Both the position numbers and the translations under genes were made by a program. From Candidatus Saccharimonadota bacterium (GTDB taxonomy: Bacteria > Patescibacteriota > Gracilibacteria > Absconditabacterales > Absconditicoccaceae), in contig CP006913.1 of the NCBI GenBank assembly GCA_000503875.1, positions 840,001 through 872,000 of the forward strand: 32,000 bases of DNA, in the 5' to 3' direction. The stretch's first letter is position 1. Every line of letters starts with the position of its first letter. Positions 18,801-25,651 of this stretch are shown piece by piece. The notes below the pieces were generated by a model, which made no database searches, was not told where the DNA came from, and was given only the letters and a program-made list of their open reading frames with translations.

Positions 18801-18839
18801 AAAAAGCCGGCAGTTTGCCGGCTTTTTTCCTAAGAAAAA
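18800..18839. terminator. bidirectional intrinsic terminator; copy 2 of the 40-nt direct repeat
   Basis: AAAAAAGCCGGC-AGTTT-GCCGGCTTTTTT followed by CCTAAGAAAAA. The CTA at 18830-18832 is the TAG stop of tex on the minus strand. Confidence 0.7.
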
Positions 18840-21127
18840 CTAATATTTCCTTTCATACTTGTTTCTGGGATATTATCATCATCTTTTCCTCCTTTTGATC
18901 ATCCGATATCACGTTTTTTTTCTTCTGAAATTGCTTGTCTAACCTGTTGAGTACCTGCATCTGTTCCATCTTTCATAGTCAATGACACCTTTTCTCTTTC
19001 TGCATCTATATCAAGCACCTTCACTTTCACTCTTTGACCAACACTTACCACTTCTATCGGATTACTCACATAATGATTTGCCATCTGTGATTTATGAACC
19101 AGTCCATCACTGTGCAATCCAATATCTACAAACGCACCAAAATCAGTCACATTTCTTACAATTCCTTCCAAATCCATACCAATTTTGAGATCTTTTAATT
19201 CCAAAATATCAGATTTAAAACAAGGAACTTCCAGTTCATCACGAGGATCCAATCCTGGTCTTTGCAATTCTTTGATAACATCGATCATAGTTTCATATCC
19301 AATATCATATTTTTGAGCCCATTCTTTGATTTGATGATCAGCATATTTTTCTACTGCCATAGGCAAGGTTAATGCCTTCTTTTTGATTCCAAGTTCTGTT
19401 TCAAGAAAAGCATATACTTGTTTGTGGATTTCCGGGTGGATACCTGTTGCATCCAAAACCTCTTTTCCTCACTTGATTCTCAAGAATCCAATTGCCTGTT
19501 CATACGCTTTTGGACCAAGCCCTTTCACTTTCTTGAGTTGCGCTTTTGATTCGAAAGATCAGTTTTCATCTCTATACGTAACTACATTCTTCGCTACCGC
19601 TTCGCTAAGCCCTGCAATATATTGCAACAAAGTATAACTCGCTGTATTTACATCAACTCCCACGGCATTCACGACATCTTCTACCTTTTCATCTAGCTTT
19701 TCTTTGAGATATTTTTGGTCTACATCATGTTGATATTGCCCAACTCCAATCGCCTTAGGATCGATTTTTGTCAATTCCGCCAATGGATCTTGTACTCTAT
19801 GTGCAATACTAATTGCTCCTCTAATCGTTACATCCAAATCAGGATATTCATCTTGAGCAAGTTTAGACGCTGAATACACAGAAGCTCCAGATTCAGAAGT
19901 TATCATATATTTCACATCCAATTTATATTTTTTGATGAAATCATTTACCACCTTCTCAGATTCTCTCGAAGCCGTACCATTTCCGATCACTATTAAATCA
20001 ATTTTATAATCAGACACTAATTTCAATAAGGTCTGCCAACTTTCTTCAACTTTATTTTGTGGTTCGGTTGGATAAATAACGGTTTTTGCGAGGAATTTTC
20101 CTGTCTTATCGACAACTGCTAGCTTACATCATGTTCTAAACGCAGGATCAAATCCGAGCACGGTCATACCTTTAATCGGAGGCGTTAATAAGAGGTTCTT
20201 TAGATTTTCTCCAAACACTTTGATCGCAGCTTCATCAGATCGTCTTTTTTTGTCTGATCTGAGTTCTCTTTCCAATGATGGTAATAACAATCTATCCAAT
20301 CCATCTCTAATTGCTTCTTCCAAATACGAAACAGAGCTTTTTGCTTGTTTTGGCACAAAGAAACCAACTGCAGATTCCCATATTTTGAGGTCAGAAAGCG
20401 TTAATTTCAAAGAGAGTTGCTTTTCTTCTTCTGCTCTTGTCACCGCAAGGTACGCATAAGACGGCATTTCTCATAATTTTTTAGAATATTGTTTGTAAAT
20501 TCTATAGACTCCGTTGTCTTCAAAGGTCTTTGTTGCCTTGGTTTCCAAAACAGCATGCGTATCTTCCCATGTTTTAATATCATCTCTCAAATCAGCATGA
20601 TCAGATACATCTTCAGCCACAATATCCTTAGCTCCTTGAATAGCTTCTTTGATATCTTTCACAGAAGTCTTGGCGTCACCTGTATCTTTGATAAACTTCT
20701 CTGCTTCCGCTTCGAACTCCTCTTTGGTCAAATCGGCCTTCGCCAAAATCTTCGCTAACGGCTCAAGTCATTTTGCCTTGGCGATAGTTGCCTTAGTATT
20801 CTTCTTTTCTTTAAATGGACGATAAAGATCCTCAACTCTGGCCAAGGTCTCAGCTTCCATTATTTGTTTTCTAAGTTCATCAGTCATCAAGCCTTTTTCA
20901 TCGATCAAACGAATTACATCCGCCTTTCTCGCCTCCAAATTTTTGGTATAGGTATAAATATCATTAAAATCTCTAAGCTGCTCATCCGTCGCTCCCTTTG
21001 TCATTTCCTTACGATATCTGGCAATAAACGGTACCGTATTTCCCTCATTCAAAAGATCTATAATCGTCGTAATCACACCTCTTTCCATTCCCGTTTTGGA
21101 AACTATCAACCCGATCAAATCAGCCAT
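18830..21127 (-). CDS. tex: Tex-like transcription accessory protein (YqgF/HhH/S1 domains)
   Basis: ATG 21127 to TAG 18832-18830 (766 codons, one frame). Joins five track ORFs (20768-21127, 20471-20746, 20129-20467, 19559-20026, 18899-19456) across TGAs. N-terminal VPFIARYRKE, IVIGNGTASRE (YqgF-like), GLGPKAYEQAIGFLRI (HhH), and S1 domain GIVRNVTDFGAFVDIGLHSDGLVHKSQM. Confidence 0.9.
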
Positions 21128-21215
21128 TTTCTCTACTATATAAGGTAAAAATATTATTCAAAACACAACAAATCTGACTTTATCAAAACACGTTCAGATT
21201 GCAATTCAAAAATTT

Positions 21216-21243: not shown

Positions 21244-21293
21244 TGGAATGGCATAACTAATTGTCAGGTTTTATTTTATATGACATAAAAAGT

Positions 21294-21560
21294 ATGATAG
21301 CTATCCAAGAAGAAATAATGACTGAGAATGGAGTAGAAGAACAAGAATCTAAAAAATTATCAAACAATTATGAAGATGAATTATTACAATCAATATTAAG
21401 AGACAACAGCGATGAATTTGAGCTACAAACAACTGAATCAAAAACTAATTTCAAGAAAGAATCAGAATATTTTAATGAAGAACAAACTGATTACAAAAAA
21501 ACTCGCAAACAAAGAAAGCAAAAGACTGATCAAAATCTAGCCGAGGTTTTCAAATATTAA
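21294..21560 (+). CDS. small acidic hypothetical protein (88 aa)
   Basis: Track ORF 21261-21560 (TTG start). The first ATG is 21294, downstream of the predicted promoter. Glu/Lys-rich, no family recognised. Stop is TAA. Confidence 0.45.
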   Translation: MIAIQEEIMTENGVEEQESKKLSNNYEDELLQSILRDNSDEFELQTTESKTNFKKESEYFNEEQTDYKKTRKQRKQKTDQNLAEVFKY

Positions 21561-21569
21561 ATTTTTTAT

Positions 21570-21960
21570 AAAAAATCCCCAGCGCATGCGCTGGGGCTTT
21601 AGTTAACATGATACATCATTCCCTTCCATATATGGGCGAGCCACATAAGGGGCGCCTCTTTCATCGAAGAAGGGATTTTTTTGGGGGCCCCAATGCACGG
21701 GGCAAATGTACCTCTACACAGAGGAATAGCCAAGACGGTTTGGCATCCAATTTTTTGTGCAGGGGTGTTTTTTTCGGAAATAAATTCTTCTTTTCGGGGT
21801 TTTTCCTTCTTAAGGAGATCCTCGAATCAAAATAATTAAATGCATCATACCGGTTGATTAAATAATTTTTTATGGTATATTTAAACTAAACCTGGACTCC
21901 GAACACGGAGCAAAACTTGATGTTTTATCATATACGCGAACCAATAATTTTTTATTGGCA
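21570..21960 (-). ncRNA. candidate structured non-coding RNA of unassigned class (~390 nt)
   Basis: A GC-rich island in an AT-rich genome with no credible ORF. Minus-strand promoter at 21994-21967 and terminator at 21596-21570. Hairpins in plus coordinates: 21620-21626/21669-21675, 21687-21703, 21711-21724, 21729-21744, 21897-21910, 21941-21958. An 11-bp long-range helix pairs 21608-21618 with 21918-21931. Confidence 0.45.
21577..21596. terminator. perfect 20-nt GC-rich palindrome, intrinsic terminator (best on the minus strand)
   Basis: CCCCAGCGCA/TGCGCTGGGG. On the minus strand it is followed by A+TTTTTT (21576-21570). On the plus strand it is followed only by CTTT. Confidence 0.7.
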
Positions 21961-21966
21961 GAGAAT

Positions 21967-21994
21967 AATATAATTATTTAGATACAAAAGTCAA
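21967..21994 (-). promoter_or_regulatory. sigma70-like promoter driving the candidate ncRNA
   Basis: The minus strand reads ATTGACTTTTGTA...TATATTAT: -35 TTGACT = 21994-21989, 16-nt spacer, -10 TATATT = 21972-21967. It is the same extended box as the promoter at 15926-15953. Confidence 0.45.
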
Positions 21995-22122
21995 TACAAT
22001 ATTAAACATTATTATATAATACAAAAGAGTCATTAAGAATCTGATTTTCGTTTGTTTTTTTTTCTGTATTTTGTATAGTAAGTTATATCAAAAGACATTA
22101 TTTACCATTTACTGTAACAAAA

Positions 22123-22854
22123 ATTCACTACCGCACCATTATTATTTCAGACGTTCATTTGGGTACTCCTGACACAAAATATCAGGAAGTATTTGATTTT
22201 CTGACAACAAACACTTGTGATAATCTAATCCTCAACTGAGATATTATCGATGGACGATATTTAAGATATTTTCCAACACGACCAACAGAACAAAGAAAAG
22301 TTATTGAATATATTCTCAATCTTTGAGAAGAGAACAAGGTAAAAATAACCTACCTCAAAGGAAATCACGAAAGATTACGAAAAAATCTTCTTCCTATAAA
22401 AATAAACAATATCGTTTTTGCTGATGAAATAATTTATCAATCAGGAAACAAAAAATATCTGATTTGTCATGGACAACAATTTGATAAAAAAATCTGCTGT
22501 ATCATGGGTATAGAGACCATTTCTTTTCTAGGATGATTGTTTCTTTTTCGACTTAACAGAAAATTCAATAACCGAAGAATAAACCATGGATATACATATT
22601 TTTCTCTCGTTTGAAAAATCAAACGATTAGCTAAAAAAATAGCTCTATGAGGAGAAAAGTCATTCGATGAAAAAATCAAAAATCTTCTTCACAAAAAACA
22701 ATGCGATGGACTCATTTGTGGTCATTTGCACAAATCTGCAGATAGATATATAGGAAAATATCACTACCTCAACTCTGGAGATCGAATAGAATCCCTTACC
22801 GCATTAGTTGAGACAGAAAATCACGAATGGAAAATTATAAAATATGGAAAATAA
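22123..22854 (+). CDS. LpxH-like calcineurin-type metallophosphoesterase (UDP-2,3-diacylglucosamine hydrolase family fold)
   Basis: Frame 1 is open from 22006 to TAA 22852-22854 across about 7 TGAs. Motifs IISDVHLG, LNGDIIDG (Gly is TGA 22237), GNHE and GHLH. The start is unresolved: there is no ATG, GTG or TTG upstream of the DVH motif, so ATT 22123 is used provisionally. Confidence 0.6.
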
Positions 22855-25444: not shown

Positions 25445-25487
25445 TTTTATATATAAAGATTTAAAATCAGTAATTACAAACTAAGTT

Positions 25488-25559
25488 TGGCCCGACCAGG
25501 AGTTGAACCTGGGTTTCAATCTTCGCAGGATTGAGTCCTATCCACTGAACGACCGGACC
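25488..25559 (-). tRNA. tRNA-Arg (anticodon GCG)
   Basis: The reverse complement folds as a cloverleaf: GGTCCGG TC GTTC AGTGGATA GGAC T CAATC CTGCGAA GATTG AAAC CCAGG TTCAACT CCTGG TCGGGCC A. Acceptor stem is 7 bp (two G-U pairs), T-loop is TTCAACT, anticodon loop is CU-GCG-AA. CCA is not encoded. Confidence 0.85.
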
Positions 25560-25651
25560 ATCAAAAAGTAACTGTAAGTATTTCCCATCAAAACTCAAAC
25601 CAAAAACGCCATTAAATTACTATACATATGAAATATTTGTTTATAAATTTA

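Follow-up and report, generated by a model that had tools for sequence, protein, structure and literature searches.

What kind of gene occupies a GC-rich interval that lies in GC-poor surroundings between two protein-coding genes? We address this question for a 32,000-nucleotide (nt) stretch of contig CP006913.1 (assembly GCA_000503875.1, positions 840,001 to 872,000 of the forward strand; hereafter the window), which belongs to a member of the Absconditabacterales. The gene order at the locus is tex (minus strand), a small acidic open reading frame (ORF) on the plus strand ending at 21560, the interval in question, and an LpxH-like metallophosphoesterase gene on the plus strand ending at 22854. 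The GC content reaches 0.425–0.455 over 21500–21799, compared with 0.235–0.28 on both sides; a preliminary description of the DNA had already noticed the GC richness. That description left two alternatives, a divergent housekeeping RNA or a lineage-specific structured RNA of no described class with its own promoter and terminator, and the second proved to be the correct one. We consider it very likely that the interval holds a real RNA gene restricted to its lineage, namely a stand-alone minus-strand gene of ~390 nt that begins near G21959 and ends with the U run at 21570. The signals that delimit this transcription unit are the following.

21967–21994, minus strand: sigma-70-type promoter, with −35 TTGACT at 21994–21989, a 16-nt spacer and −10 TATATT at 21972–21967
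21570–21596, minus strand: intrinsic terminator, CCCCAGCG-CAUG-CGCUGGGG followed by AUUUUUU, a perfect 8-bp palindromic hairpin (21596–21577) with 7 GC pairs

Transcription likely starts at or near G21959. Taken by itself, the promoter match is at chance level (four promoter-like sites in the region, 4.3 expected from shuffles); it is significant because it is conserved at the same position in 11 relatives. The pattern TTGACWTTT-N6-RAATNRTTATAT has a single match in the window and a single match at the same relative position in the related loci L001–L004 and L061, and near-identical promoters are found in L196, L198, L200, L204 and L210. Terminator-like sites number two against 0.2 expected. 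The one at 21570–21596 is bidirectional and also serves the convergent acidic ORF, and a GC hairpin with a U run stands at the end of every family member. The minus strand folds with −113.6 kcal/mol, compared with −88.3 ± 6.2 kcal/mol for shuffles (z = −4.1, 0/100 shuffles as good), and the plus strand folds as well (z = −4.2), so that folding energy cannot pick the strand. The assignment to the minus strand follows instead from the promoter, the U run and the G-U pairs of the conserved helices, since reading the opposite strand would turn these pairs into A-C mismatches. The plus-strand ORF at 21608–21835, previously taken as the only one of the locus, is a real open frame, matches no Pfam family and lies where most indels between relatives have lengths not divisible by three; as described below, it is not the only ORF. 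A further promoter-like sequence (TTGATT-16-TATATT with an upstream TG; 21854–21881, plus strand) is located within the RNA gene on the strand opposite its 5′ part; the number of such sites in the region matches that expected from shuffles.

The locus was then placed among its relatives, using contigs fetched with tex and with the LpxH-like protein as queries. The Tex protein (18830–21166, minus strand) has 75 relatives among the GTDB species genomes, with 63–93% identity and nearly all from Absconditabacteria (SR1). The same promoter-RNA-terminator cassette was found at the same position in 12 related Absconditabacterales contigs that use genetic code 25, giving 13 loci including the window. 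It consists of a near-identical promoter, a 5′ hairpin, a body of GC hairpins and a terminator, adjoins the LpxH-like gene and lies upstream of tex. Lengths, counted from behind the −10 box and including the U run, are as follows.

L204: 165 nt, short form, no ORFs
L211: 201 nt, short form, no ORFs
L061: 221 nt
L001: 331 nt
Window: 400 nt
L004: 437 nt
L200: 517 nt
L198: 526 nt
L196: 604 nt, long form
L003 (sequence identical to L084): 612 nt, long form
L002: 673 nt, long form
L210: 674 nt, long form
L067: partial, long form, 3′ part only

At the syntenic position, the only one judged, the cassette is absent in L005, L197, L199 and L201/L202, and the comparison of L199 with L196 shows a clean absence versus presence of the entire cassette. 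In the identity matrix of the LpxH-like proteins, the non-carriers L197, L199 and L201 are nested among carriers, and the distant L061, L004 and L204 (56–68% identity) still carry it; the element therefore appears to be old and to have been lost at least three times. With lengths between 165 and 674 nt and four relatives that have none at this position, of which three are nested, the RNA is dispensable and fast evolving. Divergence is rapid: at 91–93% identity of Tex, nhmmer nevertheless barely aligns the RNA, and the long forms are 83–85% alike over aligned blocks. The window RNA is best read as a reduced member of a family confined to one subclade of code-25 Absconditabacterales, the longest members of which reach ~600–674 nt.

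The element is no dispersed repeat, and we see nothing that would link it with mobile elements. From 911 kb of SR1 loci, a covariance model built on the 5′ hairpin retrieved only its own input sequences, and the module motifs of the family were seen inside the RNA and not elsewhere. Searches against phages and plasmids (blastn) and against IMG/VR (two specific patterns) found nothing, and thus no phage or mobile-element association of the family. A less specific IMG/VR pattern, GGGCKCCCC..GGCTCGCCCAT, matched five contigs of 63–68% GC, which were rejected as false positives in coding sequence. A metagenome scan with the promoter pattern was dominated by generic sigma-70 promoters, and its only genuine match was L084, the copy of L003.

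Reading-frame constraint on two short ORFs

The locus had been described as ORF-less. On the RNA strand this does not hold, as two short ORFs with conserved frames lie in its 5′ part.

21881–21931, minus strand: ORF-A, AUG...UAA, 16 codons, MIKHQVLLRVRSPGLV; motif CGG AGU CCA GGU (R-S-P-G) at 21901–21890
21810–21848, minus strand: ORF-B, AUG AUG...UAA, 12 codons, MMHLIILIRGSP; motif CGA GGA UCU CCU (R-G-S-P) at 21824–21813

In nine of the 12 complete family members, the first AUG after the 5′-terminal hairpin H1 opens a frame to CGN-RGN-YCN-GGN, the codons for R-(S/G/A)-(P/S)-(G/S). This AUG and the motif are 21, 27, 30, 42 or 45 nt apart, a multiple of three in 9/9 members, with no in-frame stop in between. 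The AUG of ORF-B sits inside the conserved block CCG(C)GUAUG and reaches (V-L-I)-R-(G)-S-P in 8/8 members, with AUG-to-Arg distances of 12, 15, 18, 21 or 24 nt, again all multiples of three and without a stop. Altogether, 17/17 AUG-to-motif distances are multiples of three, compared with 53/224 indels (24%) in the rest of the RNA (Fisher p = 1.6e-10, or 1.5e-4 when conservatively counting only eight independent length changes). In the motifs and the codons before them, the changes are synonymous and affect third positions (CGG/CGU/CGC, CGA/CGG/CGC, AGU/AGC, CCA/CCU/CCC, UUA/UUG, AUU/AUC). Comparison across the family thus places both ORF-A and ORF-B under reading-frame constraint, and we think it fairly probable that they are translated.

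All that the two ORFs conserve is an Arg-(Ser/Gly)-Pro-(Gly/Ser/Val) motif, which lies at the C-terminus or close to it. The cores of ORF-A are RSPG (five members), RGPG (two), RGPS (one) and RASG (one); those of ORF-B are RSP(V/S) or RG(S/H)P. The motif is followed by 0–47 residues of unconserved sequence, with 0–3 residues in the window, L003, L210 and L001, and in L001 a single ORF represents an in-frame fusion of ORF-A and ORF-B. A third ORF considered in the long forms (MEDRRTGCPVYLHWARP) was rejected, as it contains a stop in L210 and a frameshift in L067 and lies in a different frame in the window.

One explanation of this pattern would be a messenger RNA (mRNA) that encodes two functional micropeptides, comparable to small signalling or regulatory peptides. 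Their C-terminal R-S-P-G would be the active part, and the hairpin array would serve as a stabilizing 3′ untranslated region (UTR). The frame constraint, the synonymous changes and the ORF ends close behind the motif in the four members named above would all agree with it. However, only 3–4 residues are conserved, the N-terminal part varies in length and sequence, and the tails range from 0 to 47 residues. In addition, the peptides are not membrane-like (no 15-residue window has a mean hydropathy >1.3), and a 3′ part of 240–500 nt with helix covariation exceeds what a stabilizer would need. We therefore consider a micropeptide mRNA quite unlikely.

Helices with compensatory changes and the known RNA classes

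All six local hairpins of the preliminary description are present in the window, and the syntenic intergenic regions of the code-25 relatives, once collected, revealed which helices undergo compensatory changes. From the 5′ to the 3′ end of the RNA, the structural elements are as follows.

21940–21959, minus strand: H1, 5′-terminal hairpin GCCAAUA-AAAAAU-UAUUGGU, beginning at about +1, A-rich loop
21929–21937, minus strand: predicted helix S, 5′ strand GCGUAUAUG, includes the ORF-A start codon and pairs with 21849–21842
21896–21911, minus strand: H2, hairpin GCUCCG-UGUU-CGGAGU; its 3′ strand is formed by the Arg-Ser codons of ORF-A and is followed by CCAGG
21850–21895, minus strand: predicted helix of CC(A)GGUU (21895–21889, Pro-Gly codons of ORF-A) with AACCGG (21855–21850), enclosing an AU-rich hairpin
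21842–21849, minus strand: helix S, 3′ strand UAUGAUGC, includes the ORF-B start codons
21793–21826, minus strand: H4, two-tier hairpin UUCG-AGG..UCCUU-AAG-AAGGA..CCCCG; its outer 5′ strand is formed by the ORF-B motif codons
21768–21780, minus strand: linker UUUCCGAAAAAAA, a degenerate copy of the recurrent UUGCCGA motif of the family
21729–21744, minus strand: hairpin GCCAA-ACCGUC-UUGGC, in common only with L200 (GCCAA...UUGGU)
21711–21724, minus strand: hairpin CCUCU-GUGU-AGAGG, the local counterpart of family helix Pa
21687–21703, minus strand: Pb, hairpin GCCCCG-UGCAU-UGGGGC, then an A run at 21682–21676
21620–21675, minus strand: Pc, stem UCCCUUC...GAAGGGA, enclosing Pd and the conserved block GGCUCGCCCAUAU
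21656–21635, minus strand: Pd, GGCG-CCCCUUAUGUGGCU-CGCC, inside Pc; pairs mostly invariant, 2/7 compensatory
21597–21619, minus strand: tail AUGAUGUAUCAUGUUAACUAAAG, includes the 3′ strand of a long-range helix (21618–21608)

Compensatory changes uphold helices H1, H4, Pa and Pc, and the family is, on this comparative evidence, a structured RNA. For H1, 92.9% of the cells are paired (22–42% in slid controls) and four of the seven pairs show compensatory changes; its covariation score of 0.607 compares with 0.383 in shuffles, none of which (0/500) reach it, and its G-U pairs are compatible with the minus strand only. The outer and inner stems of H4, Pa and Pc are complementary with differing sequences in 8–11 members. 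The outer stem of H4 is kept in eight (CGAGG/CUUCG, UCGAG/CUUGA, GGAGU/ACUCC, GGAGC/GCUCC, GAAGUCC/GGACUUC), and its inner stem has an extra C:G pair in L200. Pa encloses 29–69 nt in the relatives and a tetraloop in the window (CUCCGC/GCGGAG, CCUCCA/UGGAGG, UCCUUCAC/GUGGAGGA, UCCUCUG/CAGAGGA), and the stem Pc is retained with differing sequences in nine members. Hairpins of different sequence occupy the H2 position in L200, L198, L196, L002, L061, L004 and L210, each followed by CC(U/A)GG; pair counting gave no result for H2, as MAFFT did not place the helix in a single register. Without the terminator, 11 of the 12 complete members fold with z ≤ −2.0, the remaining one being L004 (z = −1.2).

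The long-range pairings have a different standing. The previously proposed helix between 21931–21918 and 21618–21608 is part of the minimum-energy fold of the window (duplex z = −2.15), and in that respect the proposal stands, but it is significant in 0/9 relatives (z from −1.4 to +1.8). The closed architecture of ~300 nt that this helix was thought to form is not a feature of the family; its closing helix is not conserved in the relatives. A long-range CUCCG:CGGAG(3′) pairing suggested by RNAalifold was also rejected, since the local Pa is the helix with compensatory changes (L002, L196). Near the 5′ end, partition-function folds pair the start regions of the two ORFs (AUAUGCG:CGCGUAU) with a probability of up to 1.0 in L002, L003 and L210. 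The window equivalent, GCGUAUAUG:UAUGAUGC, has its GC clamp on the opposite side, which amounts in effect to a compensatory rearrangement. These predictions are no more than suggestive of a pairing between the two start regions. In the window, CC(A)GGUU is predicted to pair with AACCGG, immediately 5′ of the ORF-B AUG, with a probability of 0.69–0.98. The motif codons also serve as hairpin strands, on the 3′ side in H2 and on the 5′ side in H4.

The modular build of the RNA raises the possibility that it is purely non-coding and acts in trans, as an abundant and stable scaffold or sponge whose loops and A-rich linkers bind protein or RNAs and whose AUGs are conserved through their helix. Several observations would suit such a role, namely the multi-hairpin construction with recurring motifs, the strong promoter, the 5′ hairpin and the terminator, the location of the AUGs in helix S, and the lack of ORFs in L204 and L211. 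Among the recurring motifs, UUGCCG occurs 12 times in six members, which is 19x the expected number, and CCC(C)/GGG(G) hairpins with a ..UAUUUGCAU..-type loop are present in 1–3 copies per member. However, RNA structure does not explain the 17/17 frame conservation and the third-position variation. The window RNA itself contains no perfect copy of UUGCCGA, and no targets complementary to this motif were found in the window. A sponge of the CsrB/RsmZ type was rejected, as GGA motifs are not enriched: GGA and ANGGA counts are within ~1–2.7 standard deviations of shuffles in every member (7 vs 4.5 ± 1.8 in the window). We thus view a purely trans-acting RNA as rather unlikely.

Furthermore, a decaying, non-functional remnant has to be considered, in which an ancestral RNA of ~650 nt is lost by deletion and the window form is a neutral relic. 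The repeated loss and shrinkage point in this direction, and the Pc/Pd module of the window resembles a deletion that fused two long-form modules. The window nevertheless keeps a near-consensus promoter, both ORFs in frame and a fold with z = −4.2, and the closing stem was rebuilt after the apparent deletion. A mere relic is therefore very unlikely in our view.

The RNA belongs to no Rfam family and no named family. With Rfam 15 at the gathering score, only tRNA-Arg was detected in the window, and at E ≤ 10 over 21400–22150 there were only weak, terminator-driven matches and no RNase P, transfer-messenger RNA (tmRNA), signal recognition particle (SRP) or 6S RNA. ARAGORN likewise reported tRNA-Arg and no tmRNA in the window, and ten related loci (120 kb) gave tRNAs only at the Rfam gathering score. 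For the 612-nt L003 homologue, nothing was found at E ≤ 10 except a local RNase P match of 8.5 bits (E = 3.1), with a gathering score of 100.

RNase P RNA deserves a separate word, because GGAGUCCAGG, GAUGAA and GUGGCUCGCC were first read as CR-I, CR-IV and CR-V with a P4 helix. This reading was rejected on account of the missing model match in longer relatives, the local pairing of AGUCC, the lack of conservation of GAUGAA and the dispensability of the locus. In hairpins H2 and H4, AGUCC supplies the 5′ strand and covaries with its local partners. As regards the long-range P4 helix between CR-I (GAGGAAAGUCC) and CR-V (ACAGAA..GGCUUA) and the elements CR-II to CR-IV, the AA before AGUCC is absent, and GAUGAA is not conserved in the relatives. 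An essential gene of constant size is also at odds with a length of 165–674 nt and the absence at the syntenic position in L005, L197, L199 and L201. A tmRNA was discarded for want of a tRNA-like domain (acceptor and T arm, CCA end) by ARAGORN or Rfam (E ≤ 10), and SRP and 6S RNA because neither the window nor L003 gave an Rfam match at E ≤ 10.

More generally, the size of ~350–400 nt, the GC richness relative to the genome and the many helices recall RNase P RNA and tmRNA, the latter also having a short ORF, and there are local resemblances (AGUCC, GAUGAA, GGCUC). The RNA differs from both in its lack of a conserved core (P4 and CR-I to CR-V, or the tRNA-like domain), its variable length and its dispensable locus. 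A highly divergent RNase P, tmRNA, SRP or 6S RNA missed by the Rfam models is thus extremely improbable, with no model match at E ≤ 10 in the window, a sub-threshold 8.5 bits in L003 and a negative ARAGORN result, and the locus is almost certainly not a housekeeping RNA. A false lead is thereby removed, namely that this locus supplies the RNase P RNA or tmRNA that a code-25 genome seemed to lack. The large ornate RNAs OLE, GOLLD, ROOL, HEARO and raiA are similar in being multi-hairpin RNAs of no assigned function, a comparison to which the long forms of 600–674 nt lend themselves. They were excluded for lack of an Rfam match (window at E ≤ 10, L003, ten loci), and in contrast to them the present family has a far narrower distribution, poor sequence conservation and no association with phages or mobile elements. 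Finally, a type I toxin-antitoxin system was rejected, because the peptides are not hydrophobic (hydropathy limit 1.3) and the single promoter-like site on the plus strand is no more than chance would yield. Literature searches for leader and other non-coding RNAs of Absconditabacteria came back empty.

A possible regulatory role of the short ORFs

We regard the case as evenly balanced that this is a new, lineage-restricted leader-like or dual-function RNA, with two mini-ORFs in its 5′ part and a non-coding hairpin array in its 3′ part. In such an RNA, the 5′ 150 nt would comprise the terminal stabilizing hairpin and two short translated ORFs, and the 3′ 240 nt a non-coding array of GC hairpins with A-rich linkers between them and the intrinsic terminator at the end. 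The mini-ORFs could encode leader-type or regulatory nascent peptides that are RAPP-like (RAPP, RGPP, RAPG, RAGP), and the two start regions would be sequestered through mutual pairing. A ribosome translating ORF-A and pausing on its R-S-P-G codons might then melt H2 and the helix covering the ORF-B start, and a ribosome on ORF-B would subsequently melt H4. In this way, the 3′ domain of the same RNA, and not a protein gene further downstream, could be what translation status controls, through its fold, stability or activity. The analysis demonstrates the signals for transcription, the family and its dispensability, the covariation of helices and the frame constraint on both ORFs; that the ORFs are translated, that ribosomes pause on them, that the structure switches and that the RNA might act in trans are inferences.

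One close likeness is to the RAPP-like arrest peptides. These are typically small proteins whose genes lie upstream of others with diverse functions. A conserved R-(A/G/S)-P-(P/G) core at their C-terminus follows a highly variable N-terminal region, and at the stall the P site holds the third codon of this core (PMC12992588). Like SecM (RAGP), ApdA and ApdP (RAPP), ApcA (RAPG) and the RGPP variants, the mini-ORFs have an N-terminal part that is variable in length and sequence, and their C-terminal core resembles the series Arg, small residue, Pro and Gly/Pro. In addition, the ORF of RAPP-like systems overlaps mRNA helices over the next start codon, as predicted here. Unlike those systems, the RNA described here has two tandem ORFs in a host of the Candidate Phyla Radiation (CPR) that uses code 25, and what closes its transcript is an array of non-coding hairpins with a terminator facing a convergent gene.

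Other parallels concern the architecture. The mgtCBR leader (mgtM, mgtP) and the ermA leader (two leader peptides) are long leaders with two short sensor ORFs; such short ORFs with Pro codons lie in a structured RNA of several hundred nt, and the position of the ribosome selects alternative hairpins. Two short Pro-containing ORFs within a structured RNA are common to these leaders and to the present family. They are, however, 5′ leaders of operons, whereas the gene that follows this RNA is convergent and tex appears to have a conserved promoter of its own. Dual-function small RNAs (sRNAs) such as Bacillus subtilis SR1/SR1P, Staphylococcus aureus RNAIII/hld and SgrS/SgrT resemble the family in their independent promoter and terminator, the short ORF in a structured RNA and the restriction to one lineage. 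Compared with them, the peptides here are barely conserved past 3–4 residues, and the non-coding part of the long forms is far larger.

A number of observations weigh against a leader-like or dual-function RNA with RAPP-like peptides. With 13 loci, the family is small and the covariation statistics are limited accordingly; such a narrow and repeatedly lost family limits the weight of the finding. The short members L204 and L211 lack both ORFs, and the ORF lengths (12–57 codons) are near chance, which is ~19 codons by our rough base-composition estimate. RNA-level constraint adds to the conservation of the motifs, because their nucleotides are also helix strands. The start-to-start pairing was not seen in L196, L198 and L200, for which other partners are predicted. 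No same-strand protein gene lies before the terminator, and only ORF-B is downstream of ORF-A. To our knowledge, every characterized arrest-peptide system has a downstream gene in the same transcript, from which this RNA departs. Since the spacing of the motif differs between variants (R-S-P-x versus R-G-S-P), one precise mechanism at the peptidyl-transferase centre is disfavoured. Furthermore, the cores R-S-P-G, R-G-P-G, R-S-P-V/S and R-G-S-P resemble the arrest-tested RAPP-like motifs and yet fall outside them, and the Ala of RAPG in ApcA tolerated no substitution (PMC12992588). A search for R[AGS]P[GP] in SR1 proteins gave 0 occurrences vs 5.2 expected, but this depletion is uninformative, because control motifs are equally depleted.

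By analogy with the known systems, a function of the mini-ORFs as arrest or regulatory peptides is therefore a tentative suggestion, and we consider it unlikely that they are true RAPP-like arrest peptides regulating the non-coding domain of their own RNA. As it stands, the locus is best classed among the short-ORF or leader-type structured RNAs and not as a new principle. If such an arrest-peptide-controlled RNA were nevertheless real, its peptides would be the first regulatory nascent peptides of this type described in the CPR. The RNA would then represent a new family in a lineage that is reduced and episymbiotic, with RAPP-like leader ORFs and a large structured domain but no downstream cistron. 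It would also widen the range of what nascent-peptide sensing can control and offer a compact system for in vitro tests.

Neighbouring genes and genetic code

The use of code 25 is evident from the window itself, in which ORFs of at least 100 codons total 14,933 amino acids with translation table 25, compared with 4,734 with table 11. TGA is a sense codon throughout the window, and database gene calls under other codes truncate proteins or give W for TGA.

The small acidic protein (21261–21560, plus strand) is very acidic with a basic C-terminal tail (KKTRKQRKQK) and has no Pfam match. Its gene converges on the RNA gene, with which it has the palindromic terminator in common, and it is also found in L197 and L199, where the RNA is absent. 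On the other side, the LpxH-like gene of the window probably uses an ATT start, as judged by comparison with its relatives: P0002 and P0005 begin MHYRTIIISDVHLG, and the window has ATT (22123–22125) in place of their ATG. In the window (22081–22160), no in-frame ATG, GTG or TTG precedes the TTG at 22159, which itself lies inside the conserved metal-binding motif DVHLG.

The intergenic position between tex and the RNA or LpxH-like gene is a hot spot for gene gain and loss. Extra genes were found there in L196 (1388–3123), L199 (213–1948) and L002 (downstream of the RNA), namely ORFs of 92 and 298 aa and a 175-aa gene for a stand-alone Peptidase_C39 domain. A conserved block, TTGTCAAAATTTTT(T/G)AATTGACAT...GATTTGATACATTTGGTT, is present ~300 nt upstream of tex in L003 (5620–5700) and L004 (3510–3570) and at equivalent positions in L001, L061 and L204. 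This block suggests that tex has a conserved promoter followed by a long 5′ UTR that is conserved as well. The tRNA-Arg(GCG) gene of the window (25487–25560, minus strand) has the same position relative to tex in L001, L002, L003, L005 and L061.

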